From a virus: a stretch of DNA of 64,000 nt. Below the pieces are notes generated by a model. That model ran no database searches, was not told the origin of the DNA, and worked only from the letters and a program-made list of their open reading frames with translations. The stretch lies in the IMG/VR virus record IMGVR_UViG_3300044988_000363; one strand, written 5' to 3'. The position numbers were made by a program, and so were the translations under genes. Shown piece after piece: positions 2,390 to 59,787 of this stretch (the stretch's first letter is position 1; every line of letters begins with the position of its first letter).

Positions 2390-2466
2390 CTAAATAAAGA
2401 TGTCCGTCACGAGTTGGCGCTCTACGGACTCTACACCTGTTAAAGAGGTCCAGCATGAATATTTAT
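2390..2466 (+). promoter_or_regulatory. Conserved two-hairpin leader, copy 1
   Basis: CTAAATA..GTCCGT-cac-GAG-ttggcg-CTC-t-ACGGAC-TCTA-c-ACCT-gttaaag-AGGT-c-CAGC-ATGAATATTTAT; three other copies in the window. Confidence 0.8.
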
Positions 2467-2928
2467 TACGTATACGCATATATCCGAGCATCAGACAACT
2501 CCCCATATTATATCGGCAAGGGCAAAGGTCGAAGAGCCTTTAATAAATCTCATAGCGTATCAGTTCCCAAAGACAAATCAAAAATAATATTTCTTGAAAC
2601 TAATCTAACCAACGTTGGTGCTTGCGCTATTGAACGACGTTTAATACGTTGGTATGGAAGAAAAGATTTAAACAATGGTATTCTCCATAATCGCTCGGAT
2701 GGTGGCGAAGGACCAGATGGAGCAACCGTCTGGAACAAAGGAAAAACTGGAGTCTACTCAGAAGAAACTATTCAAAAGTTACGATCGAAAGCATCTGGCA
2801 AAAAACAATCAAAAGAAACAATCGAAAAAAGAATACAAAAAACAAAAGGCAAAACCAGAAGCGAAGAATTCAAACGACAACAATCCGAAAAAATTAAAGA
2901 ATGGTGGCGTTTGAAGAAGCAATCTTAG
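2455..2928 (+). CDS. GIY-YIG family homing endonuclease with NUMOD3-like C-terminal repeats
   Basis: YYVYAY...PYYIGKG..R...E...N pattern; SEET/SKET/SEEF repeats; antisense to neighbours. Confidence 0.85.
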
Positions 2929-3445
2929 GTTGTTTCTGTGGAGCCATAATCTTTATACGCTTCGAAGGCTGACATTTTATTTCAGGTTCTCCCTCTCTCA
3001 TATAATTTATGAATTTAAAATAAAGTCCTTTCTCTCGGCCATAAGCCTCGATTTCCCAAGGACATTCCCAATAATCCATCTCTTCGTGGAGGTATTTTTC
3101 ACCCTGCCATTTGACCATGCGTACTGGCTTCCAAATGTCTTTCATTTCACCTTTAGCATATTGCTTTAGGTGGACCATTTCATGAGCTAAAGCTAGTAAT
3201 GTTTCTTTCTTGTTAAGAGCTCTATCTACGCCTATAGTAAATTCTCTTTTCTGCTGACTGTCGTCAGTCCAGTCGCAATAAGCGTAGTCTCCGTCGATAT
3301 GATCCATTTTCTCAAATTGGATAGTCAACTTTAAGTTGTTGTAAAGTTTACCCCCTCCAATGAGATATTTTCCATAAAAATTCGCCGCCTTCTTGACTAT
3401 TGGCAGGGATATATGTGAGGGTTTACCGATTGTTTTTATGCGCAT
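2894..3445 (-). CDS. HExxH zinc metallopeptidase-like protein
   Basis: [10 protein letters not shown] and PWEIEAY motifs; start taken at MRIKT. Confidence 0.65.
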
Positions 3446-3475
3446 ATTAGCCTCCAACAATGGTTCACCCACTAT

Positions 3476-3694
3476 TTATATCGGCAATCTAGCCCCACGT
3501 TTCAGAACATTAAGGTTTTCAGCCTCCAATTGAATCTTAGACTTCATTACTGGGTCTTTTCGTATCCAATACGCCGCAGTCTCTATTTCTAGATTATTTT
3601 TCTCGCACCAAAAAACTACGGCGTCAATATATTCAATATTTTTATCTTGACAGAGTTTTTCTACTTCTTCTATGAAGCCTGAATTTTTAAGCAT
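3476..3694 (-). CDS. gp33: T4 gp33-like late-transcription coactivator
   Basis: IEYIDAVV.WCEKNNLEIETAA...KSKIQLEAENLN; lies upstream of gp59-gp32. Confidence 0.8.
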   Translation of the reverse strand: MLKNSGFIEEVEKLCQDKNIEYIDAVVFWCEKNNLEIETAAYWIRKDPVMKSKIQLEAENLNVLKRGARLPI

Positions 3695-3859
3695 TGTTTT
3701 TCATATTCCTTCAATTCGGCTATTCGTCGTTCAAGATATTGTTGTATATGACTATCGTTCAATCTTCGAGCCTTATGTCTGTTCAACTCCTGTTGTAATG
3801 ACCACATTACAGTGCTAGCATGAGAGTATGCATAAGTCTCTTTGATTGTGTCCATAGAA

Positions 3860-4261
3860 CTAATCCTTGATTGTGATTGTCGTAGATTCACCTTTGGTCA
3901 TATTGTAAAGAGTGTAAGCGTTATTTGGACTCAACCGAACGCATCCGTGACTAGCAGGTCGACCCAAATTGCCCACGTGAGGGGTAGCATGAATAGCATA
4001 ACCACCAGAAAAGAATATAGAGTGCGGCATGGGAGCATTGTCATATTTCTTTGAATAATGTATAGGCTGATAAGAATAAGGGCGGAAAGTTCCAGTTGGC
4101 GTATAATATCCCTTCCGGGCTGTAGATACTGGCCAACGTTCAATTAACTCTCCATCCTCGTAAATTGTCATTGACTGGCTGCGTTTCGAAACTACTATAT
4201 CATAGTTTGCTAGAGCAGAGGTAGAGAATAGAACTAATGCAGAGATCAGTAGTTTGTTCAT
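3860..4261 (-). CDS. Secreted L,D-transpeptidase (YkuD family)
   Basis: Signal peptide; WPVSTAR, YAIHAT..LGRPASHGCVRL catalytic motif. Confidence 0.9.
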   Translation of the reverse strand: MNKLLISALVLFSTSALANYDIVVSKRSQSMTIYEDGELIERWPVSTARKGYYTPTGTFRPYSYQPIHYSKKYDNAPMPHSIFFSGGYAIHATPHVGNLGRPASHGCVRLSPNNAYTLYNMTKGESTTITIKD

Positions 4262-4743
4262 TCTGAATCCTCAATTTGATCGAGCTTTTCTCTTACAAAT
4301 ACAGCAAACTCTGGATCTTCCTTGAGATGCTGCTCTAACTGAGCAGTAGTCATCTGTTCAGACATAAAGCATTCCCAAAGCAATTCATAATTATTCATGA
4401 TAGATATCCTAGGATAGAACCAACAGGGCCAACAAAAACACCAATACAGCGAAGAATAAACTTAGCGGTTACAGGATTGTCCATTGTATTCCAGATAGCA
4501 ATAATGTTCATCACCCATCCAACAAAAAAGACAAGCCATATTACAGTTAGAGTAATGTAATATGCTAGGCCATGATCTTCTTCACGATAATTTGCCATAA
4601 TATATTCTCCAGATTAGCGACCTGACTGTTTACGCCAAATCCATGATGAAAGGTTTAGAAGCGTTTGATGAAATTTGTCTACCAAAGAACTGTTCCAGAA
4701 CCAATGAAGCTTACGGTTTGACATTTTGTTCTCCGTTAAGAAA

Positions 4744-4820
4744 TGGCGATCCCGGCACGATTCGAACGTGCGACCCACAGATTAGAAGTCTGTTGCTCTA
4801 TCCAGCTGAGCTACGGGACC
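4744..4820 (-). tRNA. tRNA-Arg(UCU)
   Basis: GGTCCCG acceptor, AGCTCAGCTGGATAGAGC D-arm, ACAGA-CTTCTAA-TCTGT anticodon arm, GTTCGAATC T-loop, encoded CCA. Confidence 0.95.
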
Positions 4821-4829
4821 ATTGTTAGT

Positions 4830-4858
4830 ATTATACGCTGATCCGAATGGAAAAGCAA
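4830..4858 (-). promoter_or_regulatory. sigma70-like promoter for tRNA-Arg
   Basis: TTGCTT-17-TATAAT on the minus strand just upstream of the tRNA. Confidence 0.7.
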
Positions 4859-5074
4859 GTTGTTTATACAAACATTCCAAAAATGCCAGAAAGAACAAAG
4901 AACGTAATTGCAGAAGCCAATGTGATCTCAATTACGCCTGTCGCCCAATAACCCAGAATAGCTCCCAGAAATAGACCTGCAACGGCGCAGATATAGACAT
5001 TAGTACTGAGAGCAAAGTTGAACTCACGCATACCCGTATATTTGTCTTTGTTACTCATAATATATCCTTTCAAA

Positions 5075-5235
5075 ATGAAAATGCGACTGTTCTGTTTCTA
5101 GGTCAGTCGCCAACCCAATGAGGATTAAGCTGCTAGAGCGTAACCTTCAAATGATGCATCATTATCGTTTGCATCTACGTTTCGCCTTTGGTCTCCTCGA
5201 AGCCTTAATGTAGATAATCGAGCCTATACACCCCC
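5075..5235 (-). ncRNA. ssrA: Two-piece (permuted) tmRNA, coding piece
   Basis: 5' end GGGGGTG; tag frame GCAAACGATAAT...GCAGCTTAA = ANDNDASFEGYALAA*; terminal GCGACTG/CAGTCGC hairpin; 3' boundary approximate. Confidence 0.92.
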
Positions 5236-5236
5236 A

Positions 5237-5701
5237 TCATAAACTGACATATGGATTCGTTTTTTTCATAACAGATTTTAATCTACCACGAACCCAATCT
5301 TTAGGATAATCCTCTAAAGAGAACTGTCCTTCGGAAACGCCATCATTGAACCAATATCTCTTGTTTCTAATTTTTCTGCCATCTGTTCCTTTTTCATAAG
5401 GAGAAGGAACGCCTGATCTTATCCATTTACCAGTGGCAGATTTCTTACCATTTCCCCATCTAATAGCATTGGTTATTGCAGCGCCTTTTTTTGCTCCTTC
5501 ACGAATTGCTATAAAAGTGCATTCGTCAGAAGTAAGAAGACCTAACAAACCTTTCCAAGCCAATAAATCTTGCCAGTGACCATGTGTTTCATATAAAACT
5601 CTATGGGCTTCGGCATGTTCTTCAATAGTAAGTTCTATCAAGTTATTTGGTTCATCTGTTCCGCCTAAATGTTTGGGAACAATATGATGTATGTGTTTCA
5701 T
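5237..5701 (-). CDS. HNH homing endonuclease inside the tmRNA intervening segment
   Basis: HIHHIVPKHLGGTDEPNNLIELTIEEHAEAH HNH motif; C-terminal WFNDG...WVRGR module. Confidence 0.85.
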   Translation of the reverse strand: MKHIHHIVPKHLGGTDEPNNLIELTIEEHAEAHRVLYETHGHWQDLLAWKGLLGLLTSDECTFIAIREGAKKGAAITNAIRWGNGKKSATGKWIRSGVPSPYEKGTDGRKIRNKRYWFNDGVSEGQFSLEDYPKDWVRGRLKSVMKKTNPYVSL

Positions 5702-5703
5702 TT

Positions 5704-5745
5704 AATCCTCCTGTCAATCATACTTATTTATAATAGACAGGATTT
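5704..5745 (-). promoter_or_regulatory. T4-type late promoter in the loop of an RBS-sequestering hairpin
   Basis: Minus strand CCTGTC-tatTATAAATAagtatgatt-GACAGG(AGG); the right arm contains the Shine-Dalgarno of the HNH gene. Confidence 0.8.
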
Positions 5746-5755
5746 TATCAGTTTA

Positions 5756-5825
5756 TGGTGGAGGTGAGGGGATTCGCACCCCTGTCTTACCAACCTATAT
5801 GCTAAGTCTCAACGACCTCGGCAAA
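5756..5825 (-). ncRNA. ssrA: Two-piece tmRNA, acceptor piece
   Basis: AGGGG-TGCGAAT-CCCCT T-arm then CACCTCC-A-CCA; pairs with GGGGGTG at 5235 including the G3:U70 alanine determinant; 5' boundary approximate. Confidence 0.9.
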
Positions 5826-5886
5826 CTTTATTTATTCTTTTGGAATTTCGTTTTCAAATTCTTCAATTAGGGGATGTGGTGGTTCT

Positions 5887-6794
5887 TTAGTGGCACGGTC
5901 TGTTAGAACTGTCCCGTACAATGCACTTACCGACGGTCGCCAACTCAGCGCAGCCAGCAACACCCAGACTAAGACACACCATTGCTATTGCTATATAAAC
6001 CTTTTTCATTCTTATCCTCCGGATTATAATCGTGCTTTTCAGTTTCATGAAGAGCAACAGAAAACCATTCAGTAGAACCTTCACGTTGATACTGAAGATC
6101 CTGCATTGGAACCATTACCATTTCCTTAGTCTGAGGATGAACCATCATCTTAGGAAACATTACCATACGAAAATCTACAATCGGCTTTTTCTTATCAACG
6201 CCTCCCGTTGGGAGACTGCTAGCAGCAATTGCACCATCTGGTCCAAGAATACTCATGTCTTTTGTCCTTTTACCTTTTCAAGCAACTGACCTAGATATTC
6301 AATCGCTTTATCATTAAATGTAACGTCGTCTAAAACACCAACAACGCAATATTGCTTTGCTGCCATTGCATTTCCATCCGAAGACTTATCGTATTCAATG
6401 ATAAACAGATGCCGATCTTTGGACATCATAACTTCATTCATCTTATCATTCTTTATACCATTATAAAGAGTAACAAGAGCTTTATCATCAATCATCTTCA
6501 TAAATTCTTTATTTTCATAACACTTCAATTCTGACTCTGCTGATAAAGCAGAGCCAGTTAACATTGAAGAGATAATCACACCATACATGATATTCTTCAT
6601 CATCACTTCCTTGTGGTTACTTCCTGAACCTTTTGAGCAACCTTTTGATAATCAATCTTACCAAAATTGGTTGGACGCTTTGGAGGTAGAGGAACTTCAA
6701 CATACTTTGTAACTGGAGGCGCAATAACGTCGCCAGCAATTGCACTACCACCCATAAGCATGGCAGCGATAGTCGATAAGATAATCTTATTCAT
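5887..6794 (-). CDS. Run of four small hypothetical proteins, several with signal peptides or a lipobox
   Basis: Abutting ORFs 6603-6794, 6253-6606, 5969-6256 and 5887-~6008, three with hydrophobic N-termini. Confidence 0.55.
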
Positions 6795-6968
6795 CTTATT
6801 TCCTTTCGGTATTATTTACGATGTTCTTAAGCAAAGCAACATCGTAATTTGTGATACGAGAAAAAGCATTCAACGCTTCTTCCCTTGATACTCCTTCTTT
6901 TTCGAGAAGGAACTTTGCTACGATCTTTATATCATTAAAGTCTTCGTAGAATTCTACATCTTTAGTGT

Positions 6969-8096
6969 TCATTGAACCACCCTCAACAAAATCGTGTTCT
7001 CGTTGATACGATACGCAAGAGGCTTTTCTGTCTTGAGATCATCAAGGACTTTTCGTAGAACAAGTTTACCACCCTCAAGTATGCGCTTGAGAAAATCGTT
7101 CGGTTCTTTCCTGCCCACAGAGCGGGAAATAGAACTACTTTCGTCATAGTTCGTAATGCTAGTTCCCTTGACCTGTAGCCCACCACGATCAATCGCTGTA
7201 AGCCTCGTAATCGTCTTATACTTTGTATTGAAAGTCCAGAGTTCCATTGCACCGATGATTTTTTCCGGTGACACTGAAGCAATTTTATAAGTTGCATCTT
7301 CCTTTTGGAACTTGAGACCCTTGATCTTCTTCTCAACTGATACTGCTCGTGGCTTGCGAGCCGTTCTAACTTTCTTCGTATTTGAAGAATATCTCTCCGC
7401 ATCTTCGATGAGGGTGTTGTAGAACGAGACGAGTTTCTTGATTTCTGTCTTTTTAAGGTGACGATAACCTTCTTTAAGCTGATCATCTTTTCCCTCATAC
7501 GCTTCAAGCAATTCGTCGAGCACTGGGGAAAATTTAGCAATGATTGAAGTAGCATAGGCTGCAGGAATATTGTTGCTCTGCAGCCACTCATACATCGAAA
7601 ACTCTACATTCTCGTAGATGTAATCGTCAATCAATCCTTCAATCTCTCCCAAAATATCATGAGTTTTCTCACGCATACGATCCTGGATAGAAATCCTCGG
7701 AGTTTCTGATTCCTCCTTGGGTTCTTCCTTCGCCTTGTCCCACATATTTAGGATCTTAGAACTGAAAAACTGCATCGTAGTTCCCGATGGCTTATGACCA
7801 CGAGAGATCATACGTGCAATCCAAGCAGCAGTCAAAGGAATATCTACGTCGGAGATCCTCGAAAGCTTCTTGGCTAGGTCTGGCTTACCAGTGTTCTTGA
7901 AATATTCCTTTAGATAATCACGAGCATCATTGGCAGTGCACATGTAGTTATACCATGTGAAACACTGACCCTCGTTGACATCCTGGGTCATAAGAGGCTC
8001 GTCGCCCAGATATTTCTTGTTCACAATATACTGTTCGGATCGAGAGACCCGAATAGTCTTTGGTTTACGCTTAATGAGTGCTGGGCGACGAGCCAT
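6969..8096 (-). CDS. Hypothetical phage protein (~375 aa)
   Basis: Long ORF with an AAGGAG RBS before MARRP; no family recognised. Confidence 0.7.
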   Translation of the reverse strand: MARRPALIKRKPKTIRVSRSEQYIVNKKYLGDEPLMTQDVNEGQCFTWYNYMCTANDARDYLKEYFKNTGKPDLAKKLSRISDVDIPLTAAWIARMISRGHKPSGTTMQFFSSKILNMWDKAKEEPKEESETPRISIQDRMREKTHDILGEIEGLIDDYIYENVEFSMYEWLQSNNIPAAYATSIIAKFSPVLDELLEAYEGKDDQLKEGYRHLKKTEIKKLVSFYNTLIEDAERYSSNTKKVRTARKPRAVSVEKKIKGLKFQKEDATYKIASVSPEKIIGAMELWTFNTKYKTITRLTAIDRGGLQVKGTSITNYDESSSISRSVGRKEPNDFLKRILEGGKLVLRKVLDDLKTEKPLAYRINENTILLRVVQ

Positions 8097-8150
8097 GAAT
8101 ATCTCCTTCAATCGTATACATATTATACTTTATATAAGGGTCAAAGACAA

Positions 8151-8228
8151 CTAAATATTATTGTCCGTCACGAGTTGGGAGCTCTACGGACTCTAACGCT
8201 AAGAAGGAGCATCAGCATGGATATTTAT
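8151..8228 (+). promoter_or_regulatory. Conserved two-hairpin leader, copy 2
   Basis: CTAAATA..GTCCGT-cac-GAG-ttgggag-CTC-t-ACGGAC-TCTA-ac-GCT-aagaagg-AGC-at-CAGC-ATGGATATTTAT. Confidence 0.8.
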
Positions 8229-8645
8229 GATCCAATCGGTAAAGCATTAGGTCTCGAACCTATCGAATTTAATTATGATATAAAAACCTATTGTCCAGAC
8301 CAAGAAATTATTCCTTGGAACAAAGGTTTGACAAAAGAAGATCCTTACGTCGCTGAAATAGGCAAAAGAATTTCTCAAGCAAAACAAAATAATCCTACCA
8401 AACCTTGGAACAAAGGTTTGACAAAAGAAGATCAACGTGTAAGAGAAAACTCTATAAAGGCAGCTAATACTAAAAAACAGCAGGGGTTTTATAAAGATTG
8501 CGGAAAATATCTCCCTAAACTCATAGGAGATAAAAATCATATGAAGTCTTCAGAACATAGAAAACGTATGTCTGAATTAGCTTCTAGAAGATATAAAAAA
8601 TGGAACGAGGACGGTAGCTGGACTTGGGGCTACCGTCCTCTGTAA
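8217..8645 (+). CDS. NUMOD-like DNA-binding-repeat protein with no recognisable nuclease domain
   Basis: PWNKGLTKED twice, SEHRKRMS; antisense to neighbours; start at MDIYD after the conserved leader. Confidence 0.6.
   Translation: MDIYDPIGKALGLEPIEFNYDIKTYCPDQEIIPWNKGLTKEDPYVAEIGKRISQAKQNNPTKPWNKGLTKEDQRVRENSIKAANTKKQQGFYKDCGKYLPKLIGDKNHMKSSEHRKRMSELASRRYKKWNEDGSWTWGYRPL
8313..8433 (+). repeat. 31-bp exact direct repeat (8313-8343, 8403-8433)
   Basis: CCTTGGAACAAAGGTTTGACAAAAGAAGATC x2. Confidence 0.95.
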
Positions 8646-8646
8646 C

Positions 8647-9627
8647 TTATGCCGCTTGTTCGGCCATTTCTACTGCAAGCTCAAGAGCCTTAGTCTTGAG
8701 ACCCTTGTTGTAGCCATACCAAGCCGACTGCATTCGAGTGTCAGCCGTACGACCGAGAACGTGATCGGTCATAAACGTAACAGCGTTAAAAGGCTGCCAC
8801 CAGCTGCCCTGAGCGAATTCGCTACCAGGCTGAGTGTCGAGAATACCGAGAGCCATATTGGCATTCTTCGAACGCTTACCCTCAACCTTATCTTCCGAAG
8901 TAGCACCAGCCAGCGGGAAGATACGCTCGAAGTACTCGACGATCGTTTCAGTCTTGGCCTTCTTCGAACCAAGGAACTGAGCCATCTCCTTATACTTCTG
9001 GAGCTTGTCGGTTGCAATGCCAAGCATATCCTTCACGTTAGCAGGGTTAAACTGCTTACGATGGGAAATCTTGACCATACGCTCTACCTTCGAACTGAGC
9101 GAGAGCGAGAGCGTATTGTTGCAAACGACTCGGATCGGCGTAAACCGAACGTCAGTAGAGAAACCATACTTGTGGAAATTAGAAAATAGAAGATAAGAGT
9201 CAATTTGATCTCCTTTGAAAAGCTCGAAAGATTCCTTGATCTTTGCGAGACCCCAAACGATCTGACCTCCCTTTAGCGAACCAGCGGTATGCATCTCCAT
9301 ATCGCCAGCCATCACAAACTCATTAAAGAAGTCGAACGCCTCTGCATTCTGCACGGGGTTCCAGTCGTCAGAGACAACGTCAAGCATCTTCTTGTCCTTC
9401 ATACGAACAAGAGCAGACTGACCTGTCTCCATTACACTATCCGGATCGTTTTCATCCAGAATAGCAAAAGTAGGAAACTTCTGGACTTCCCAATTGAGAC
9501 CAGCAGCTTCCAACATCTGTTCCGGGGTGAGATCCCCGAGAACCTTAACACCAAGACCATGCCACGGAACATCGCCAGCATAAGCCATCTGAGCGACACC
9601 ATCAACGAATTCGATTTCATGAGCCAT
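8647..9627 (-). CDS. DUF932/DUF945-type phage/plasmid protein
   Basis: MAY.G..PWHGLG, PVQNAEAFDFF, TAGSL.GG, FTPIRVVCNNTL, W..FNAVT motifs. Confidence 0.85.
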   Translation of the reverse strand: MAHEIEFVDGVAQMAYAGDVPWHGLGVKVLGDLTPEQMLEAAGLNWEVQKFPTFAILDENDPDSVMETGQSALVRMKDKKMLDVVSDDWNPVQNAEAFDFFNEFVMAGDMEMHTAGSLKGGQIVWGLAKIKESFELFKGDQIDSYLLFSNFHKYGFSTDVRFTPIRVVCNNTLSLSLSSKVERMVKISHRKQFNPANVKDMLGIATDKLQKYKEMAQFLGSKKAKTETIVEYFERIFPLAGATSEDKVEGKRSKNANMALGILDTQPGSEFAQGSWWQPFNAVTFMTDHVLGRTADTRMQSAWYGYNKGLKTKALELAVEMAEQAA

Positions 9628-9661
9628 TTTACTTCTCCTTCACATCAACCATCATATACAT

Positions 9662-9690
9662 AGTATAGCTCGATATTTTAAAAAAGTCAA
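9662..9690 (-). promoter_or_regulatory. sigma70-like early promoter
   Basis: TTGACT-17-TATACT followed by a GGTTGATG..AAGGAG leader. Confidence 0.8.
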
Positions 9691-13307: not shown

Positions 13308-13451
13308 TTAGTCCTCCAGTGTTCCCGGAACAATCCAATAAGAGTGATCGGTGCTCTCATCATAGGGAGCCATATCCTGTTCGGTGAAATAAAAGGCATG
13401 ACCAAACATGCCAGGACAGATATACACCGACTGCCAATAAACGACAATCAT
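13308..13451 (-). CDS. 47-aa protein, VPGTLED family copy A
   Basis: MIVVYWQS...SYWIVPGTLED; paralogues at 13453 and 14456. Confidence 0.7.
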   Translation of the reverse strand: MIVVYWQSVYICPGMFGHAFYFTEQDMAPYDESTDHSYWIVPGTLED

Positions 13452-13452
13452 C

Positions 13453-13581: not shown

Positions 13582-13606
13582 CTCACTTCTCCTCAACCAT
13601 AGAATA

Positions 13607-26092: not shown

Positions 26093-26318
26093 TATAAATA
26101 CGTGACCTTAACAACACCAAGGAGGGTGTAATGATTAGAATATCATATACAATCAAGAATATTGACGGACTATTGGTTGACAAAACCCAAGTCTTCAATA
26201 CGCTCTCCGAGTTAACCATGTTTATAGCACATCTCAGAGCGTCAGGACAGTTAGTAGGAAAGCCAACTATCTCCTAAATAGGGTTGCCTTCGGGCAATTC
26301 TTTCGAAAGGAGATTATT

Positions 26319-27667: not shown

Positions 27668-29338
27668 ATGCAATACAAAGCACCAGTAGAATCGACAACA
27701 TTTCTTCTTCGTGACGTTCTGAAGTTTGATAATGAATTAACAGAACCTATTCTAGAAGAAATTGCAAAGTTATGTGAAGAAACAATTGCTCCCACTAATC
27801 AAATAGGAGATATTGAAGGCTGTAAGTATGTCAAAGAAGAAAGTAAAGTTAAAACTCCAGCAGCGTTCAAAGAAGCGTATAAAGCGTTTGCCGAAGGAGG
27901 CTGGGTGGGTCTTTCGGTTCCTGAACGCTATGGTGGTCAGGGCTTACCGTTTACACTTGCGGTTGCTGCAAACGAATTTGTATCCTCATCTAACATGGCT
28001 TGGTCTCTTTATCCTGGCATTTCTCGTGGAGCGATCCAGGCACTCTTAGTTTCTGCATCAGACGCACAGAAAGAAACATTCATTCCTTGGCTAGTTCGTG
28101 GCGAATGGACAGGAACAATGTGTCTTACTGAACCACATTGCGGAACTGATCTTGGTTTGCTCAAGACTAAAGCAGTAGATAAACAGAACGGATCATATGA
28201 GATTACTGGCCAGAAGATTTTTATTTCTGGCGGCGAACATGATCTGACAGATAACATTTTACATCTTGTTCTTGCAAGAGTTGAAGGCGATCCAGAAGGC
28301 GTCAAAGGTATTAGTTTGTTTGCTGTGCCAAAAGTTTTGCCTGATTTCTCACGCAACAAAGTTTTTGCTGGTGCTATTGAAGAAAAGATGGGCATTCATG
28401 GTTCACCAACTTGCGTTATGAACTTTGATGGTGCTACTGGATTTTTAATTGGTGAACGTTGCCGTGGTTTACAGGGCATGTTTATTATGATGAATGAACT
28501 TAGATTAGGATGTGCCATTCATGGATTATCTCAGTCGGAACTCGCATTTCAAAATGCATTACAATACGCCAAAGACAGAATCCAAAGCAAATCGCTTGTC
28601 AATGTTAGCGGTCCTAGTGTCTCTATTCTTGCACATCCTGATATTAGGCGTATGCTTATGGATGTTAAGTGTATTAACGAAGCTGCCCGTCTATTAATTC
28701 TAGAAGCAGCCACATTGGTTGATAAGGGCGGTGAAAAAGCAGAAGATCTTCTTGGTCTTATGACTCCTGTTCTCAAAGGTGTTATTACAGATTATGGCGT
28801 TGAGAACGCTATCAAGATGCAGCAAGTATGGGGCGGTCATGGTTATGTCCGTGACAATGGCATGGAACAAATTGTCCGTGATGCTCGTATTGCTATGATA
28901 TATGAAGGCGCTAATGGTATTCAGGCGCTTGATTTAGTAGCAAGAAAACTTCCTAAAAATATGGGTCGTGCTGTTATGCGTTTCTTCAAAGATACTGAAA
29001 CATTCCTAACAAGTTCTTATGAACACGATATCAACCATATCGTTCAGCCAATGACACAAGCCGTAAGCGAACTAAAGCAAGCAACTGAATGGTTAGCAGC
29101 AAATGGTATGAAGAATCCTAATGATGTTGGTGCAGCAAGTTATCCATATATGAAAATGTTTGGATTGGTTTTGTTAGGATTGGCGCATATTCGTATTTGT
29201 TTGGCAACCGACGACAAAGCAAGACATACTACCGCAACTTATTTTATGGAGAATGTCTTGCCAGAAGCCAGTTTCTTACTGAAAAAGATTCGTCAAGGAT
29301 CACAAACAATGATGGCACTAACTCCAGACGAGTTCTGA
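27668..29338 (+). CDS. Acyl-CoA dehydrogenase
   Basis: TGTMCLTEPHCGTDLG, GQKIFIS.GEHDL, EEKMGIHGSPTC, QVWGGHGY, IYEGANGIQALDL. Confidence 0.95.
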   Translation: MQYKAPVESTTFLLRDVLKFDNELTEPILEEIAKLCEETIAPTNQIGDIEGCKYVKEESKVKTPAAFKEAYKAFAEGGWVGLSVPERYGGQGLPFTLAVAANEFVSSSNMAWSLYPGISRGAIQALLVSASDAQKETFIPWLVRGEWTGTMCLTEPHCGTDLGLLKTKAVDKQNGSYEITGQKIFISGGEHDLTDNILHLVLARVEGDPEGVKGISLFAVPKVLPDFSRNKVFAGAIEEKMGIHGSPTCVMNFDGATGFLIGERCRGLQGMFIMMNELRLGCAIHGLSQSELAFQNALQYAKDRIQSKSLVNVSGPSVSILAHPDIRRMLMDVKCINEAARLLILEAATLVDKGGEKAEDLLGLMTPVLKGVITDYGVENAIKMQQVWGGHGYVRDNGMEQIVRDARIAMIYEGANGIQALDLVARKLPKNMGRAVMRFFKDTETFLTSSYEHDINHIVQPMTQAVSELKQATEWLAANGMKNPNDVGAASYPYMKMFGLVLLGLAHIRICLATDDKARHTTATYFMENVLPEASFLLKKIRQGSQTMMALTPDEF

Positions 29339-29988
29339 TGTTGTTTGGAGTTTAGATGTTGATTCCAGTTGTGTTGTCCTTTTATATCACGATTACAGCA
29401 TGAGCAATGAAACACAGGAGCAGTTTGGAAATACTTCTTTCGTCTTTCCGACTGCTCTTGTCTCTTTTTAGGGTCAGACCATGTTTCTTTATGCTTCTTT
29501 GATAATGCTTCTCTTTTGGCAGTATTGGACCAAACCTTTGAACTTATCTTTGATCTTTCTTCCAAGTATTCAGGAGAGTTTCTAATGGCCACCATGTTAT
29601 CACGAAACTCTGGATCATCCCATTGTCTTTTTAGATTATCTGACCTTAGTTTTCTTATCTCAGGAGCGTTATTGATTTCTAACATTCTGGCATAGTATTC
29701 GGGATCAGACCATCTTTCGTTATTCAACTTGGTGGCAAAGTCAGAGATTTCTTGTTGGGACATTTTGAGTTTTTGAGATATTCTCAAACAAGCGTATGTG
29801 TCGTTCTGGGAAAAATGAATATCGTAATGTTCCTGTATAGAAACACACTGGAGATTATCTATATGATTATTGGAATGATTACCGTCGATGTGATGGATTT
29901 CATACGATCTTCCTTGTTCGTCTTTAGGAATAGGACCGTTGAAATGTTCCCAGATTTTGCGGTAGTTGGTTGTAGTATAAATATCCAT
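29293..29988 (-). CDS. HNH homing endonuclease with helical repeats and a C-terminal zinc finger
   Basis: EIHHIDGNHSNNHIDNL..VSIQEH; WSDPE/WDDPE repeats; CSCC...HLNSKQH; start at MDIYT. Confidence 0.85.
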   Translation of the reverse strand: MDIYTTTNYRKIWEHFNGPIPKDEQGRSYEIHHIDGNHSNNHIDNLQCVSIQEHYDIHFSQNDTYACLRISQKLKMSQQEISDFATKLNNERWSDPEYYARMLEINNAPEIRKLRSDNLKRQWDDPEFRDNMVAIRNSPEYLEERSKISSKVWSNTAKREALSKKHKETWSDPKKRQEQSERRKKYFQTAPVFHCSCCNRDIKGQHNWNQHLNSKQHQNSSGVSAIIVCDP

Positions 29989-34365: not shown

Positions 34366-34375
34366 TCTTCTAAAT

Positions 34376-34402
34376 AAGGGAGGGCTTCGGTCCTCCCTTT
34401 TA
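34376..34402 (+). terminator. Intrinsic terminator
   Basis: AAGGGAGGG-cttcgg-TCCTCCCTTTT. Confidence 0.8.
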
Positions 34403-34419
34403 TTATTAGGAGATATACA

Positions 34420-48820: not shown

Positions 48821-48827
48821 TATTTTT

Positions 48828-48835
48828 TATAAATA
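48828..48835 (+). promoter_or_regulatory. T4-type late promoter
   Basis: TATAAATA upstream of 48907. Confidence 0.75.
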
Positions 48836-48906
48836 AACAGTCAGTGCGAGTATAAAAGGGTACGCCAGACCTCGCATATATAAGGAAAGCCCAAGGGAAA
48901 CTCCAG

Positions 48907-51042: not shown

Positions 51043-51044
51043 TC

Positions 51045-51491: not shown

Positions 51492-51494
51492 CAA

Positions 51495-53244: not shown

Positions 53245-53268
53245 TTGAAATAATTCAGAGGATCTAAA

Positions 53269-55653
53269 ATGTCTGACAAAAAAACAATTCAAGAAGCTCT
53301 TGCTGAAGTTCAAAGAAATGCAGAACTTATGGAAGCGCCAAACGTTTTTAAGCTATTTGGTCGTGGTGCAGCAAAAGTTCCAAAATCAGCACCAATACGC
53401 CCTATGCCGCATGGCGGAGAAGATCTGGTTGGTAAAGCAAAACAGGCTCCAAAGGAACCACCAACAATTGATCTTAAGGCAGAAAAGCCAAAAACAACAA
53501 CACCTAATGTCCCTGAAGCTCCAAAATCAACTATCAAAGATTTTGGTAAAGCTGTTGCTGGAGCTGGACTTGCAGCTGGTGCAGGTTATGCTGGTTATAA
53601 TGCATTCACTAAAGGAGCAGTCAATCCTCCTACTGAAAAGTTTACAAAGGACGAGCCGAAAGCAGAAAAGCCAAAGGCAGCTGAAACACCAAAAGCTCCA
53701 GAAGCTGCAAAACCACAAACTTTTGGTCAGGCGTTTGCTGCTGCTCGTAAGGCTGCTGAAGCAAAAGGCGCAAAGACATCTGGTCAGTTTGAATTCCAAG
53801 GTAAGAAATATCAGACAAACCTTCAAGGAACAGGAACTACTAAAAAGCCACAAGAAAAATATGTTTCTATGAGCAAACAGACAAAGGTTGACGTAAGTGC
53901 GCCAAAGGCAGCAGCAACTCCTACAGTCACAAAAACACCTGAAACTCCAAAGCCAGCTGAAACATCAAAGGCTCCAGAAGCATCACAAACTTCCCCAGCA
54001 CCAAAGGCTCCAGAAGCTCTAGGTAAAACTATTGGTTCTTTGATGAGAGGAAATGTCTCTAGAGCAGGAGAAGGTGCTAAGGAATGGGTTTCAGCTGTTT
54101 CAACAAGCAGTAGCAGAGCTTGGAACAAAACAGCAGACGCCTTCGATCCAAAGGGCGCAGAATCAGAAAGCGGATATTCTAAAAAAGGAAAAACTAAAAT
54201 GTCAGAAGAAAACGAAATTAATGAAGCAATGCCTTTACCACCACGTCGTCCAGGGCAAACTGGTAGCTCTATGATCCAGAGAGGAGATACTTTATCTTCT
54301 CTTAGTAAGAGATCTGGACTTTCTGTTGCTGATATTATGAAACAAAACCCAAATATCAAAGATCCTAACAAAATTAGTGCTGGCGCTTCAATTAACTTAC
54401 AGAAGCCAGAGCAAAAAACTGTTTGGAAAGATCCAGTTTCTGCTGGTTATGATAAACCAGCACAAACAACTACTACAAGCCCAAATACAACTAAGTCTTG
54501 GGATTCTGATATTCCAAAAATTGATAAAGGGCCAACTACTTCTGCAGCGCCCACACCAACACCTGCTCCATCCACATCAAGTAGTTCATCAATGCTTTCT
54601 GGAACTCCAGTAGCACAACAGAGAACACTAGAAAAAGAAAGTGGTGGTAAGAAAAAAGTGGCAGAAGAAAATAGCCCACTAATTGCAGCATTCCTAGACC
54701 TACAGGCTAAGAACCCAGCAAACATGTTCGAAGCTGCTAAGAAGGCTAAGAAAGACTATGACCGTGACGGCAAGGTAGAGTCACCAAAGGACGAAGTTTG
54801 GGGTTCACGTTTCCGTGCTGCTAAGGCAGCTGGTAAGATGGCGGAAGGCGTAAAGGCTGATCCAAACGATCCTTCATATCAGGGTGGTGGTGATGTAACA
54901 TCTACACCTGAAAAGAAAACTTCTATGCCAAAGCCAACTGCTCCTAAGACTGATTCATCAGTTCAGGGTTCAGGCGATGTCACTATGAATGGCAAGCCAA
55001 CAAGAGTTAAGGAAGAAGTTACTTTCTCACAGGCAGAAATCGACCATATTAACTCTTTTTTTCTTGAAGCCTCTGTAGCACCAAATAGACCTGAAGTCGC
55101 TATAGGGGCAGATTCTACTTCAGATAAGATGTCACAGAACGATGTTACTGCGACAGCTGAAAGTGGTAAGAAAATCAGAAAAGAAGAAGTTGAAGTTGAT
55201 GAAGGATACGGAAACACTCCTTCTGTTCGTTCATTTGGTCATGATCCGCTTTCAGGCGGTCGTGGTCGTCCAAGAACAGATGTTGCCACTAAAGGCGAAA
55301 GAAAGGGTATGGTAAAAAAGTCCACTCAGGATTCAATGAAGCGTAGAATTGCTGACCGTCTTGGTTCGCATGCTAAGGCAAATCTACCAGAAGAAACTCT
55401 TGAAGAAGGTCGCCCAAAGAAGAACCCAACACCTGAAACAACTGAGCGTGATCCACGCAAGCATATTCAGGTAGAGGCAGGGCGTGCTGCTGCTGGTAAC
55501 GTTGTTGACTTTACTCACAATGATGGTTCGAGATCAAAGATTACACCAGCAATGGGTAGAAAAATTGTTTCTCATCTTCAGGGTCTAAAGCCAGCTGACC
55601 GTCAGTCTGCTGTTAATAAGATGCATGATAGTGCTGAAGGACTAAAAGTTTAA
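53269..55653 (+). CDS. Large low-complexity late protein with a LysM domain
   Basis: IQRGDTLSSLSKRSGLSVADIMKQNPNIKDPNKISAG LysM; KKDYDRDGKVES motif. Confidence 0.75.
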   Translation: MSDKKTIQEALAEVQRNAELMEAPNVFKLFGRGAAKVPKSAPIRPMPHGGEDLVGKAKQAPKEPPTIDLKAEKPKTTTPNVPEAPKSTIKDFGKAVAGAGLAAGAGYAGYNAFTKGAVNPPTEKFTKDEPKAEKPKAAETPKAPEAAKPQTFGQAFAAARKAAEAKGAKTSGQFEFQGKKYQTNLQGTGTTKKPQEKYVSMSKQTKVDVSAPKAAATPTVTKTPETPKPAETSKAPEASQTSPAPKAPEALGKTIGSLMRGNVSRAGEGAKEWVSAVSTSSSRAWNKTADAFDPKGAESESGYSKKGKTKMSEENEINEAMPLPPRRPGQTGSSMIQRGDTLSSLSKRSGLSVADIMKQNPNIKDPNKISAGASINLQKPEQKTVWKDPVSAGYDKPAQTTTTSPNTTKSWDSDIPKIDKGPTTSAAPTPTPAPSTSSSSSMLSGTPVAQQRTLEKESGGKKKVAEENSPLIAAFLDLQAKNPANMFEAAKKAKKDYDRDGKVESPKDEVWGSRFRAAKAAGKMAEGVKADPNDPSYQGGGDVTSTPEKKTSMPKPTAPKTDSSVQGSGDVTMNGKPTRVKEEVTFSQAEIDHINSFFLEASVAPNRPEVAIGADSTSDKMSQNDVTATAESGKKIRKEEVEVDEGYGNTPSVRSFGHDPLSGGRGRPRTDVATKGERKGMVKKSTQDSMKRRIADRLGSHAKANLPEETLEEGRPKKNPTPETTERDPRKHIQVEAGRAAAGNVVDFTHNDGSRSKITPAMGRKIVSHLQGLKPADRQSAVNKMHDSAEGLKV

Positions 55654-55924
55654 TGCCTATCTTTGCTAAGAATATTATTGTTGGGGCAGAAAAAAAGGAA
55701 GAACCAAAAGTTCTTCCTGCCTCCAGCACCAATTCCTTTGACAATTTACGTTCAAAAATAGTTAGAACTATTCCTTTTCAAGAAAAGGTTGAAGAAAAAA
55801 CACATTATGAAATTGTCAAAGAAGGCGATTTAATTAAACACCACAATACCAAATCTCACTATCTTAATGATATGACAGGATTTGGGAATTAATAAATAAA
55901 ATAAATTCTTTAGGAGGAATACAA

Positions 55925-56828
55925 ATGCCATTATGGGGTAATCAAGACACTGCTTCTAATTCAACTATCTTTGCGCCAACAAGCGTAAAGCTAGCACCAA
56001 ACAGTGCAAACAGAGACAATCTTTTCGGTAACACAACAGCTAACGCTTTTATTGATGGCGTAACAGTTGGTCAATTTGGTGTTGATGGTAACGAAGTTGC
56101 TGCCAATCCAGGAATCACCCACACTGGTTGGGTTCTTCGCACTGCAGGTTCAGGAGGACGTGCTGGTCGTGTTATGACAGAAGTTCTAGTAGCTGGTGGT
56201 ATTACTACTGATGCTTCGGACGACGTATCAATGCCTGATTACGTTATTCTTGTTAACACACAGCCTGTTAATACAACAATTAATGCAACTTCAAACGTAA
56301 ATAACACTGGTGTTATCTTTACTGTTGCTGCAACAAGACCAGCTGGCGGAACAATTTCTTATCGTTGGCAAGCTAATACAGGTTCTGGCTTCGTTAACGC
56401 TGCTGCAGGAACAACTGGCAATACAACAGCCAATCTTACTGTCCATGCTAATAGCTTCACAACTGGCGCACAGTTCCGTGTTCTTCTTCAGGCAACTGGA
56501 GCAGCAAACGTCACTTCAAGCGTTGCTACACTAACTGTTAATACTTAATAGGTGATATATGACAGATAACAGCAAAAAAGTTTCGCAATTACCAACTGCT
56601 GCTAATGTAGCTTCTTCAGATAGAGTCTTAGTCCTCCGAGATCCTTCTGGAGCTCCATCTGTTCGCACAGTAAATGCAAACATTTTTGCTGCTAATCTAG
56701 TAACAGGAACTGTTCCGGCAACTGCTAATACAACAGGTATTGCCGGAACTATTCGTTATAACGATTCTTATATCTATGTGTGCGTTGCTAATAACACATG
56801 GAAAAGAGCAGCACTTAGCACCTGGTAA
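55925..56828 (+). CDS. Two probable structural proteins (55925-56548 with Ig-like C-terminus; 56559-56828)
   Basis: TQP...FTV.A......SYRWQ...FRV..TSSVATLTV; YIYVCVANNTWKR. Confidence 0.6.
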
Positions 56829-57217
56829 TGAATGAAAATTTGACTGATAAAAATTTTTTATTATATTGCGCTTCACATTATGATAACGCAAGATATGTTT
56901 CTACTGAAGATTTTTTAGAAGATCTTAATAGATTAAAATATATTAAAAAATTAATTACAAGATATACTGAATATGGTGAGTTGAAAGAACGTTTGATACT
57001 TAACCATATTATTATTTTAAATAATTGTTTTGGACCTGAGGTTCTTTGTAAAATTTTATATTTAAAAATGAAACCTCAGATGAAATACATCAAACCTTTT
57101 TTGATAATGCTTAACATATTACCAGATTATATTTACAATGTAAATAATGAAAAAACAATTGACACAAATTTAATTGAAATGGATGCAAAAATTGTCGCAA
57201 AACTAAGGGAAGTTTAA
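56828..57217 (+). CDS. Conserved T4-like hypothetical protein
   Basis: F.EDLNR.KYIKKL..RY...GELKERLILNHIIIL.N.FG. Confidence 0.7.
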   Translation: MNENLTDKNFLLYCASHYDNARYVSTEDFLEDLNRLKYIKKLITRYTEYGELKERLILNHIIILNNCFGPEVLCKILYLKMKPQMKYIKPFLIMLNILPDYIYNVNNEKTIDTNLIEMDAKIVAKLREV

Positions 57218-57783
57218 TGCAAAGTATAATAAAACAATTAGAAAACTTTGTAAAGTTTGCGGCAAAAGAAATAAACCTTACAAAACTACCAAAGATTCAT
57301 TTCGTAGGTAAGTCACAAAATTCAAAAGCAGCCTTCGGTCATTCTAATGGCAACGAAATATATGTTCGTATAACAGAGCGCCATCCTGGCGACATTATGC
57401 GCACTATTGCCCACGAGCTTATTCATATTAAGCAAACACAGATGGGTAAAAAAGGTGAACAATACAGAGAAGACGAAGCTAACGCTATAGCAGGAAGAGT
57501 AATGAGAAAATTTAATACAACCTACCCTAGCGTATTTAATCAAAAACCAACTTCATCAAACATCGCAGAGACTGAATCTCTTATGCCAGCCAACGTAATG
57601 GGATCCGGTGGTCCAGGTGCTGGTATTCAAACCTATAGTCCATTGATTGATATGGACAGAGGCAATAAAAAATTCAACCCTATGTCAGCTCTATACAAAA
57701 AGAAAAAGCTAAGAGACATTGTTGGTCTTAAAGCTGCGTTCAAGAGAGAACGTAGAGCAGAAACAAGGAAAGATCAGAACTAA
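57217..57783 (+). CDS. HExxH metallopeptidase-like protein
   Basis: DIMRTIAHELIHIKQ...EDEANA.AG. Confidence 0.65.
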   Translation: MQSIIKQLENFVKFAAKEINLTKLPKIHFVGKSQNSKAAFGHSNGNEIYVRITERHPGDIMRTIAHELIHIKQTQMGKKGEQYREDEANAIAGRVMRKFNTTYPSVFNQKPTSSNIAETESLMPANVMGSGGPGAGIQTYSPLIDMDRGNKKFNPMSALYKKKKLRDIVGLKAAFKRERRAETRKDQN

Positions 57784-58169
57784 TGGACGAGAAGACTTGC
57801 AACAATCTAGAATTGAAACAAAATAAACTAGAAGATGCTATCTCTAAATTAACTGATATATCTGCTGATCTTAATAAAATGATCGCAGTTCATGAACTAC
57901 GTTTGACTCAACAAGAGAAAATTACTGATAGCTTAGAAATTATTTTAGAAAAAAGAAGAGATGAATTTGATACTCGTGAAGAGAAAATTTATGAAACAAT
58001 TGAAAAAGAAGACGCTAAAATTAGCGAAAAGCTAGATGAATGTTTTGATAAATTTTCTAAAAAGATGAATGATCTAGAAAAAATGATGTGGGTGTATGGC
58101 GGCGGATTTGCCCTTGCTGCTTTTATTTTGGCCAATTGGGGCGATGTTATGAAATTGATGGCTCGTTAA
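57783..58169 (+). CDS. Coiled-coil protein with a C-terminal TM segment
   Basis: Heptad-rich sequence, MIAVHE.RL, hydrophobic C-end. Confidence 0.55.
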   Translation: MDEKTCNNLELKQNKLEDAISKLTDISADLNKMIAVHELRLTQQEKITDSLEIILEKRRDEFDTREEKIYETIEKEDAKISEKLDECFDKFSKKMNDLEKMMWVYGGGFALAAFILANWGDVMKLMAR

Positions 58170-58234
58170 AAAACAGTTTGCCTTTTTTGAAAATGCCAGT
58201 ATAATCATATATGAGGTCATTATGAGGATAGATT

Positions 58235-59257
58235 ATGGATTGGCTGGCTCACAAGTATATCGGTATTATTTCTACTCGTTTAGAAAAGTTTAAACGTAAG
58301 GGTCCAAACCTTTACAACTTCCGCTGTCCTGTATGCGGGGATTCCGAAAGTCATCAGAATAAAGCACGAGGATACATCTACCAGAAGGATGGCAAGATGT
58401 TGTTCCATTGTCACAACTGTAATGCTACAATGGGAATTCCCAACTTTATTAAGATGCTTGATGTCAACTTATATAATGAGTATCAGTTAGAAAAGCTGGC
58501 TGATAAGAAAACGCCTGAGCAAGATGATTACGAAAAGTTCGTAGAGAAAATGCGGAAGCCAGTTTATATGACTTCCGGACCATTGAAAGGATTGAAGAAA
58601 GTATCTCAGCTTTCGCCATTTGATCCAATCAAAAAGTTTGTTGTGGAGAGAAAGATACCTAATGTATATCACGCCAAGTTATTTGCATGTCCTAATTTTA
58701 AGCATTTTACTAATAATTTGGTTCCCAACAAGTTTTCAGCTGAGTCTCTGGCTAAAGATGAGACAAGACTTCTTATCCCTTTTCTTGATAGTAATAAGAC
58801 TGTTCATGCCTTCCAAGGGAGAACGTTGGGATCTTCAACAGTTAAATATATTACAATTGTTCTTAATCAATCAATACCTAAACTTTATGGCTTGGACACT
58901 GTTGATCGTAACAGAATTATTCCTGTCCTTGAAGGTCCGATTGACAGTATGTTTGTTCCTAATAGCATTGCTACTGCTGGAGGTGATCTCGTTAGTGCAG
59001 TAACAGATTTCGATAAATCTAGGTTGACAATTGTGTATGATAATGAGAAATATTCTAAAGAGACCGTTAAGAAAATGGAAAAGGCTATTCTTAATGGTTA
59101 CTCTGTGTGTATTTGGCCCGATAATTTAGATCAAAAAGATATTAACGATATGGTTTTATCTGGTATGAGTTCTGAATTTATTGAACATATTATCAAAACT
59201 AACACCTATCGTGATTTACCGGCACAATTAAGGTTGAATCAGTGGAAGAGAGTTTAG
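58235..59257 (+). CDS. gp61: T4 gp61-like DNA primase
   Basis: [10 protein letters not shown]...FHCHNC zinc finger; [25 protein letters not shown] motifs. Confidence 0.95.
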
Positions 59258-59720
59258 ATTTCTTTGATGCTGAGATTTTTGCTTTATGTTCTTCGGACAT
59301 AGGACCACGAGGGCCAGTTTTTACGCCTTTGTTCCAAGCAGGTCTTCCTTTCATTCGAAGCGAGTGAGCAGGATTTTTGCCTCTTCTAGAAGCGTATTTT
59401 TTAATACGATCTTCTATGCTATACGGACCATATGGACCCACAGGACCGGATCTGACAGGCGGCATATCTCCTCCTTCAGTTTTATTATGGAGAACACCAT
59501 TGTTTAAATCTTTTCTGCCATACCATCTGATATATCTGCGTTCTAATGCTAAGGCGCCAATTTCTGTTAAATTGCTCTCTAAGAATACAATTTTGGATTT
59601 GTCTTTTGGAACAGAAACACCATGTTGTTTGGAGAAAGCTCTTTTATCTTTTCCCTTACCAATGTAATATGGAGTATTATCTGATGATCTTAGGTAGGCG
59701 TATACGTAATAAATATTCAT
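59199..59720 (-). CDS. GIY-YIG family homing endonuclease, paralogue of 2455-2928
   Basis: [24 protein letters not shown]...[19 protein letters not shown]; different C-terminal tail. Confidence 0.85.
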
Positions 59721-59787
59721 GCTGTCGCTCCTCTTTAGCGGTAGAGTAGGTAGAGACTGCAATCTCGTGACCTACGCTTTATTTATA
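59709..59787 (-). promoter_or_regulatory. Conserved two-hairpin leader, copy 4
   Basis: TATAAATA..GTAGGT-cac-GAGA-ttgcag-TCTC-t-ACCTAC-TCTA-c-CGCT-aaagagg-AGCG-a-CAGC-ATGAATATTTAT. Confidence 0.8.

Follow-up and report, generated by a model that had tools for sequence, protein, structure and literature searches.

A repeated two-hairpin module between facing late-promoter motifs heads phage homing endonuclease genes and may give rise to an antisense RNA

Four copies of a two-hairpin module in a T4-like phage

The stretch of DNA analysed here (the window) comprises 64,000 nt of the IMG/VR virus record IMGVR_UViG_3300044988_000363, an uncultured T4-like phage whose genes include a gp43-type DNA polymerase, a DnaB-like helicase, UvsX, a primase, a helicase loader and virion proteins. 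Its polymerase is at most about 50% identical to those of cyanomyoviruses, and megablast and tblastn searches with other parts of the window gave no match among cultured phages. We investigated a module of about 80 aligned nt that occurs exactly four times in the window, each time at the head of an open reading frame (ORF) of the homing endonuclease type. The order of the parts is the same in all four copies: a late-promoter-like (N)TAAATA, whose distance to the ATG is 58-59 nt, comes first, and then follow an outer stem of 6 bp, a C-R-C bulge, the inner hairpin, TCTA, another hairpin with the Shine-Dalgarno sequence (SD), CAGC, and ATG RAT ATT TAT. These sites, this layout and the stem variants had been described in an original prediction for this DNA, which had also placed the late promoter ahead of the whole structure; all of this agrees with what we found, the promoter motif preceding both hairpins.

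Copy 1 occupies 2389-2467(+), with the promoter-like CCTAAATA at 2389-2396, hairpin 1 at 2402-2429, TCTA at 2430-2433, hairpin 2 at 2431-2453 (with the SD in its loop and 3′ arm), CAGC at 2451-2454, the ATG at 2455 and TATTTAT at 2460-2466. A facing late-promoter-like motif, AATAAATA, lies on the opposite strand at 2460-2467(-), inside codons 2-5 of the ORF. Copy 2, at 8150-8229(+), has ACTAAATA at 8150-8157, hairpin 1 at 8163-8191, TCTA at 8192-8195, hairpin 2 at 8193-8215, CAGC at 8213-8216, the ATG at 8217 and TATTTAT at 8222-8228, with the facing CATAAATA at 8222-8229(-). The other two copies are on the minus strand. Copy 3 (30055-29976(-)) also begins with ACTAAATA (30055-30048), followed by hairpin 1 (30042-30013), TCTA (30012-30009), hairpin 2 (30011-29990), CAGC (29992-29989), the ATG at 29988 and TATTTAT (29983-29977); its facing motif is TATAAATA at 29976-29983(+). 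In copy 4 (59787-59708(-)), TATAAATA serves as the leading promoter-like motif (59787-59780), hairpin 1 lies at 59775-59746, TCTA at 59745-59742, hairpin 2 at 59744-59722, CAGC at 59724-59721, the ATG at 59720 and TATTTAT at 59715-59709, and the facing AATAAATA at 59708-59715(+) is 103 nt upstream of the ATG of a neighbouring gene (59819-60076(+)).

The outer stem is GTCCGT/ACGGAC in two copies and GTAGGT/ACCTAC in the other two, the inner stems are GAG/CTC, AGGA/TCCT and GAGA/TCTC, and stem 2 is ACCT/AGGT or GCT/AGC, with the stems of copies within one genome assorting independently. A degenerate pattern covering the promoter, stem 1 and TCTA matched the window four times versus 0.00 matches expected by chance, and CAGCATGRATATTTAT matched it four times versus 0.22 expected. 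A covariance model of the module (R1), run with filters off, returned only these four sites at 76-90 bits and E-values of 1e-15 to 1e-18 (copy 1, 76.4 bits, E = 4.5e-15; copy 2, 76.3 bits; copy 3, 78.9 bits; copy 4, 90.5 bits). Further divergent copies were sought in the window with the same unfiltered model, and none exceeded 15 bits, the score of the next match.

The ORFs behind the module were those originally listed, namely two GIY-YIG proteins, an HNH protein and a nuclease-less repeat protein. Copy 1 precedes a GIY-YIG/Seg-like homing endonuclease ORF of 157 amino acids (aa) at 2455-2928(+), opposite in strand to a gp59-like helicase loader (1804-2379(-)) and to 2894-3472(-). Copy 2 precedes a 142-aa ORF (8217-8645(+)) with two PWNKGLTKED (NUMOD3-like) repeats and without a nuclease domain, opposite to 6969-8096(-) and 8647-9627(-). 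The ORF of copy 3 (29293-29988(-), 231 aa) is an I-TevIII-like HNH_3 homing endonuclease with a C2H2 zinc finger, opposite to 27668-29338(+), and that of copy 4 (59199-59720(-), 173 aa) is a second GIY-YIG/Seg-like homing endonuclease, opposite to the DNA primase (58235-59257(+)) and to 59819-60076(+). The two GIY-YIG/Seg-like ORFs match phrog_314 and phrog_15526.

Distribution and novelty of the module

The degenerate pattern was found at no fewer than 113 IMG/VR loci. Among the 123 matches listed, the two stem positions that the pattern leaves free are complementary in 119, and nearly all of those 119 show the same downstream layout, which the pattern had not required. Five large IMG/VR genomes carry 3, 7, 8, 8 and 13 copies according to R1, and these searches served as the positive control for the negative results obtained with that model. 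When 596 gigabases of bacterial and archaeal genomes were searched with the same pattern, 89 matches were obtained; five of them have the full architecture, and all five sit on contigs of metagenome-assembled genomes, which may be mis-binned phage DNA.

When the downstream genes were tabulated, as had been proposed as a check, linkage to homing endonucleases was found: 53 of 87 complete downstream ORFs in the wider family match phrog_314 ("homing endonuclease"), and others match HNH families. The Pfam domains detected in these 87 ORFs were NUMOD3 (28), GIY-YIG (14), HNH (8) and HNH_3 (6), in agreement with the view that the module is not tied to one protein family.

We found no match to Rfam 15 at the gathering score at the four sites, and none at E ≤ 1 in four loci holding eight copies, in line with the earlier remark that it was not recognised as a named motif. 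A description of the module was likewise not found in a full-text literature search, and the sole match to one module copy that blastn returned from 50,697 phage records was a 25-nt stretch attributable to chance. With R1, none was detected in S-SRM01, MA01, S-CREM2 or S-PM2, which are cultured cyanophages; those with related GIY-YIG genes thus lack the module. The module is a real, widespread and previously undescribed regulatory RNA/DNA cassette of phage homing endonucleases.

The related GIY-YIG genes of S-SRM01 (positions 1370-1490 of locus L114) and MA01 (positions 1395-1482 of locus L115) have a different head, composed of two tandem late-promoter motifs with a terminator-like hairpin between them. 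In these phages the first, short predicted transcript contains a segment complementary to the leader of the gene (in S-SRM01, TGTGTTCGCA versus TGCGAACACA).

Covariation and the strand that folds

The structure was analysed in an alignment of 101 distinct copies (A2). The RNAalifold consensus has 14 pairs, divided between hairpin 2 and hairpin 1 (an outer stem of 6 bp, a bulged region and an inner stem of 4 bp), and double compensatory changes occur in 10 of them. In an extended 19-pair structure, 87.6% of the cells are paired versus 66.4 ± 0.6% after shuffling (a value reached in none of 500 shuffles), and the covariation score is 0.543 versus 0.149 in shuffles and 0.04-0.11 in slid controls. 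The earlier view of the module as a covarying, structured and portable element is supported. Four of the six outer-stem pairs were fixed by the search pattern and hence are uninformative; AU/CG/GC/UA and GC/AU/CG/UA are the combinations present at the two free pairs. TCTA and CAGC, both invariant, pair together (C-G, U-A, then A.C) to form the base of hairpin 2, whose 4-5 bp stem often has A.C mismatches and whose loop and 3′ arm hold the SD. Since the sense hairpins of the window copies are thermodynamically unexceptional in single-sequence folds (z-scores of -1.4 to +0.2), the case for structure rests on covariation and not on energy.

The six-base loops of hairpin 1 in A2 occur as reverse-complement pairs of similar frequency (CGCCAA/TTGGCG, TTGCCG/CGGCAA, CTGCAA/TTGCAG, CGGGAA/TTCCCG), as though the loop were inverted in some copies relative to others.

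The strand that better accommodates the conserved fold is the one opposite to the ORF. Among the non-Watson-Crick cells on the sense strand, A.C occurs 204 times versus 18 for G.U (103 versus 18 when the invariant pair 63/96 is left out), and pair 30/53 is GC in 53 copies, AU in 21, AC in 27 and GU in none. A sense A.C is a G.U on the antisense strand, and standard pairs therefore make up 97.3% of cells on the antisense strand versus 87.6% on the sense strand. When the copies were clustered at 80% identity, A.C was present in 37 of 45 clusters and G.U in 13. The RNAalifold consensus energy is -22.48 kcal/mol for the antisense strand versus -14.74 kcal/mol for the sense strand, and the single-sequence minimum free energy is lower on the antisense strand in every one of the 101 copies (means of -19.96 versus -15.05). 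In the antisense fold a single nucleotide separates two hairpins, one of 8 bp with a loop complementary to the SD, and one of 11 bp in which two invariant single-G bulges flank one R-Y pair. Because of this strand preference, serving as the leader of the endonuclease mRNA, as first proposed, is probably not the main identity of the module.

The facing motif in the first codons

The first four codons shared by the downstream ORFs, a similarity noted originally, are better described at the nucleotide level than as a feature of the proteins. In all 63 copies whose ATG directly follows CAGC, the wobble position of codon 2 is T, even as 10 different residues are encoded there and the background frequency of T at third positions is 34%. 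Ile at codon 3 is encoded by ATT in 46 of 52 cases (background 41%) and Tyr at codon 4 by TAT in 54 of 57, and in a few copies TATTTAT is kept in another reading frame. Given these preferences for the wobble T, ATT and TAT, and the occasional shift of frame, the M-x-I-Y head appears to be mainly a nucleotide motif, TATTTAT, which is the reverse complement of the late promoter.

Read on the antisense strand, 66 of 71 8-mers are NATAAATA, the late-promoter consensus of T4-like cyanophages (PMC2984593). AATAAATA is also present 25-26 nt upstream of structural genes in the window, and T4-type late-promoter motifs stand before ordinary window genes as well. The opposite-strand NATAAATA is located 5 nt from GCTG and about 70 bp from the sense start, a geometry from which promoter activity is predicted. 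Extrapolating from T4 late promoters, we take the antisense start to be the G of GCUG (in copy 1, the G complementary to C2454), which would leave one base of the antisense RNA ahead of its first hairpin. The sense TAAATA occurs in 99 of 107 copies that were sampled irrespective of both promoters. The earlier suggestion that the module is the end of an element holds insofar as conservation in A2 stops exactly at the two facing promoter-like motifs, and fits in no other sense.

Orientation and neighbouring genes

Calling orientation crudely from ORFs, we found 49 cassettes opposite to both neighbours and 23 co-oriented with them (binomial p = 0.003), and the four window copies are all reverse-oriented. 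The facing motif is kept in 20 of the 23 co-oriented cassettes versus 30 of the 49 reverse-oriented ones (Fisher p = 0.03), the co-oriented cassettes being those without other antisense transcription available. The strand bias of the fold is alike in the two classes, with A.C/G.U counts of 26/3 in co-oriented and 50/9 in reverse-oriented copies. Because the facing motif is kept more often in co-oriented cassettes while the fold bias is equal in both classes, the data fit a model in which the selected feature would be antisense transcription across the module, whether from the built-in promoter or from flanking read-through.

The start codons of neighbouring genes lie only 22-43 nt beyond the antisense hairpin at 2379(-) and 59819(+). 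Sigma70-like promoters on the neighbours' strand adjoin three of the four modules: TTGACA-17-TATAAA at 2356-2384(-), TTGTCT-17-TATAAT at 8122-8150(-) and TTGACT-17-TATAAT at 59803-59831(+). The use of two of them is doubtful because they overlap the start codon of the neighbour. A GTCAA/TTGAC motif was considered as a part of the module, being present near all four window copies, but was rejected since it accompanies only 16 of 60 and 3 of 35 copies in the wider set; a flanking GTCAA is seen in just 19 of 99 copies elsewhere. The 3′ ends of three of the reverse-oriented endonuclease ORFs overlap the 3′ ends of their convergent neighbours by 35-59 nt (2894-2928, 29293-29338 and 59199-59257), and the intergenic space is wholly filled by those cassettes.

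Proposed antisense control and alternative explanations

The explanation that we favour, while holding it with some reserve, is that a cis-antisense RNA, made from the facing promoter or by read-through from the flanking gene, restrains the endonuclease. In uncultured T4-like phages the module would then serve as a portable cassette that controls the expression of free-standing homing endonuclease genes (HEGs), with a late-promoter motif at either edge, the two pointing at each other across about 70 bp. Transcription of the HEG mRNA would be driven by the left motif, (T)ATAAATA, and begin at or just inside hairpin 1. The right motif, TATTTAT in codons 2-4, reads NATAAATA on the opposite strand, where it would direct synthesis of an antisense RNA whose first base is the G of GCUG. 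This RNA is predicted to fold into an 8-bp hairpin with an anti-SD loop and an 11-bp hairpin with two invariant bulged G's, and to end in an A/U-rich tail that is the reverse complement of the HEG promoter. Since the 5′ end, SD and AUG of the HEG mRNA would all lie within the region of full complementarity, a block of translation and/or cleavage of the duplex would follow, and the facing promoters could add transcriptional interference. For reverse-oriented cassettes inside a transcription unit of the host phage, as all four are here, flanking read-through would supply the same antisense RNA. Both transcripts, their ends and the repression are what we infer from the sequence architecture, covariation, strand bias, nucleotide-level selection on TATTTAT and HEG linkage observed above.

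Several observations weigh against this explanation. The facing TATTTA is exact in only 71 of the 107 copies in the sample described above, and in one third of copies TATATAT or TACTTAT is found instead, x-Y still being encoded. Where the ATG is shifted by 1-2 nt, TATTTAT mostly shifts along with it, so that a protein-level or ATG-linked constraint on the motif may be involved. The first base of the antisense 8-mer is mostly A or G, whereas sense promoters prefer T, and the strand bias would look equal if the antisense strand acted as single-stranded DNA. In addition, at the two window copies where the ribosome-binding site of the neighbour lies 22-43 nt behind the hairpin, transcripts must read through and termination must be inefficient. 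The antisense tail is a poor canonical terminator: the stem of antisense hairpin 1′ is present, but the tail, UAUUUA(U), begins 3-6 nt after it, the first 3 nt are usually not U, and a simple terminator scan made no call. Its U content simply reflects its complementarity to the HEG promoter.

Alternatively, and closer to the original prediction, control may act on the sense strand in the manner of T4, which we consider unlikely. Hairpins 1 and 2 would form the 5′ end of a late HEG mRNA, one as a stabilizer and the other holding the SD in a weak hairpin. In read-through transcripts, UAAAUA would pair with UAUUUA of codons 2-4 (helix P0) and mask the start region, and late transcripts, lacking the 5′ arm of P0, would be translated. 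The same logic has been demonstrated for I-TevI, I-TevII, I-TevIII, segB and mobE (PMC2988022), and both the near-constant sense promoter (99 of 107 copies) and the preferential retention of TATTTAT in co-oriented cassettes, where read-through exists, are consistent with it. The inward extension of P0 also slightly exceeds that seen with shuffled partners (1.07 versus 0.75 bp, P = 0.002, uncorrected for phylogeny). However, P0 is built entirely from A-U pairs, its predicted pair probability averages 0.23 and exceeds 0.5 in only 15 of 71 copies, and when covariation was sought in the promoter:TATTTAT helix, CTAAATA promoters were found without a compensating change in TATTTAT. Sense control also leaves unexplained the better antisense fold in 101 of 101 copies and the A.C:G.U ratio of 204:18, and the sense hairpins, with the z-scores given above, do not stand out.

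It is similarly doubtful that the fold of the antisense strand is a part of the flanking phage gene's mRNA. Under this explanation, the late promoter in codons 2-4 of the HEG would re-supply a gene cut off from its operon by a reverse-oriented cassette, and the two hairpins, at the 5′ terminus of that gene's mRNA, would stabilize or insulate it, making the insertion harmless or hard to lose. The excess of reverse-oriented cassettes, including all four in the window, would be expected, as would the position of the neighbours' ATGs at 2379(-) and 59819(+), 22-43 nt past hairpin 1′, with no room for a promoter of their own. Promoters that lie within T4 HEGs and serve genes downstream have been described (PMC2988022), and other late-promoter-like motifs of the window, at 26273 and 34369, are directly followed by a hairpin. 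On the other hand, co-oriented cassettes, in which the facing motif is not directed at any gene, retain it more often, and the antisense fold bias is equally strong in them. The neighbours at 1804-2379 (helicase loader) and 58235-59257 (primase) are moreover replication genes, for which a late promoter would be ill-timed.

A signal at the DNA level is very improbable: hairpins formed on one DNA strand during replication, recombination or homing, marking a recombination hot spot or cassette boundary behind whose common head nuclease bodies are swapped, would suit the independent assortment of stems among copies of one genome, the unrelated ORFs behind one head, the loops found in both orientations (CGCCAA/TTGGCG, TTGCCG/CGGCAA), the tolerance of G.T, which is also the best-tolerated mismatch in DNA, and the shuffling that promoter-early stem-loop (PeSL) cassettes of T4-type phages are said to mediate, but homing by GIY-YIG and HNH enzymes does not require a hairpin signal, the geometry of SD, promoter and ATG and the conserved asymmetric bulges point to expression control, and nothing in the data demands DNA over RNA. 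The proposals that the module is an RNA partner or guide of the nuclease, or a common autoregulatory operator, were rejected as unlikely because it is shared by unrelated nucleases and a nuclease-less protein.

Other features of the window

A two-piece (permuted) transfer-messenger RNA (tmRNA) gene was identified at 5125-5817(-), scoring 52.8 bits with Rfam RF04321, for which the gathering score is 47. Its acceptor piece ends in CCA and its tag frame in ...YALAA, and about 490 nt separate the two pieces. Permuted tmRNAs are typical of alphaproteobacteria, some betaproteobacteria and cyanobacteria, and this gene may hint at the host. Between its two pieces lies a fifth HEG, an HNH ORF (5237-5701(-)) that begins MKHIHHIVPKHLGG and has its own TATAAATA (5732-5725) and SD, without the two-hairpin module. 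A tRNA-Arg(TCT) gene is located at 4744-4820(-), and a tRNA-like gene at 61989-62058(+) has an abnormal anticodon loop according to ARAGORN and scores 39.6 bits with the Rfam tRNA model. At 26273-26310(+) and 34369-34412(+), CTAAATA is followed by a G+C-rich UUCG hairpin, a T-rich run, and the SD and ATG of ordinary genes; each of these sites looks like a terminator overlapped by the promoter of the next gene.

Comparison with known systems and implications

The T-even HEGs are under several layers of negative control, including a late promoter within a hairpin that sequesters the ribosome-binding site, operators, and embedded promoters for downstream genes, and segD is antisense to its neighbours (PMC2988022). 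The module resembles the control of I-TevI, I-TevII, I-TevIII, segB and Aeh1 mobE (PMC2988022) in having a late promoter directly upstream and RNA structure around the SD, and in that a selfish nuclease would be kept low and late; T4 HEGs, too, have promoters within their coding regions. It differs in that the T4 promoter lies in the 5′ arm of one sense hairpin whereas that of the module precedes two hairpins, in that its covariation favours the opposite strand, where a second, facing promoter motif lies in codons 2-4, and in that each T4 hairpin is specific to its own gene, whereas more than 100 unrelated HEGs share the one module. Among phage HEGs, an antisense RNA has been demonstrated in a single case, CfrI (Millard et al. 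2010), which, according to two reports (PMC2984593, PMC5931967), was detected experimentally over F-CphI of the T4-like cyanophage S-PM2, is about 225 nt long and links psbA to the HEG. The antisense RNA predicted here would likewise run over a free-standing HEG of a T4-like phage. R1 gave no match to the S-PM2 genome (AJ630128) at E ≤ 10, so CfrI and the module are not homologous.

The module is also comparable to the PeSL cassettes, which Arbiol et al. reportedly described in 2010 as scattered in T4-type genomes, flanking accessory genes and recombining together. Both are short, repeated cassettes of a promoter and stem-loop structure, and both could be seen as mobile regulatory cassettes of T4-type phages. 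A PeSL, however, is said to combine a sigma70-type early promoter with an efficient terminator and not to be tied to HEGs, whereas the module has late-promoter motifs, two covarying hairpins, a ribosome-binding site and a start codon.

The closest mechanistic analogue is the RNA-OUT/RNA-IN system of IS10/Tn10. There, face-to-face promoters are located at the 5′ end of the transposase gene, with the antisense promoter just inside the coding region, and RNA-OUT is a stable, folded antisense RNA covering the 5′ end, SD and AUG, in elements that are multicopy. The motif layout of the module is alike, and its predicted antisense RNA would cover the same parts. The two share no homology in sequence or structure; the module has phage late-promoter motifs and a two-hairpin antisense fold, and the gene it precedes encodes a homing endonuclease rather than a transposase.

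HEGs are the main selfish elements of large phages, and their harmlessness has been explained so far by a few T-even examples with gene-specific hairpins. Here, a single conserved module, present in 3-13 copies per genome, is common to GIY-YIG, HNH and nuclease-less genes, and the comparative evidence suffices for the definition of a new RNA family. It also provides a caution for annotation, as what appears to be a structured leader can belong to the opposite strand. We tentatively propose, as a possibility that goes further than antisense restraint itself, that a family of two-hairpin cis-antisense RNAs, transcribed from a late promoter in codons 2-4, is a common brake on HEGs in a large clade of uncultured T4-like phages, that the invariant bulged hairpin is a protein-recognition site, and that the cassette makes insertion of any nuclease body, in either orientation, harmless to the host phage. 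If the antisense reading is correct, the module would be a compact case of a promoter encoded within the first codons of a gene, and the first general antisense control system for phage HEGs, parallel to RNA-OUT of IS10.

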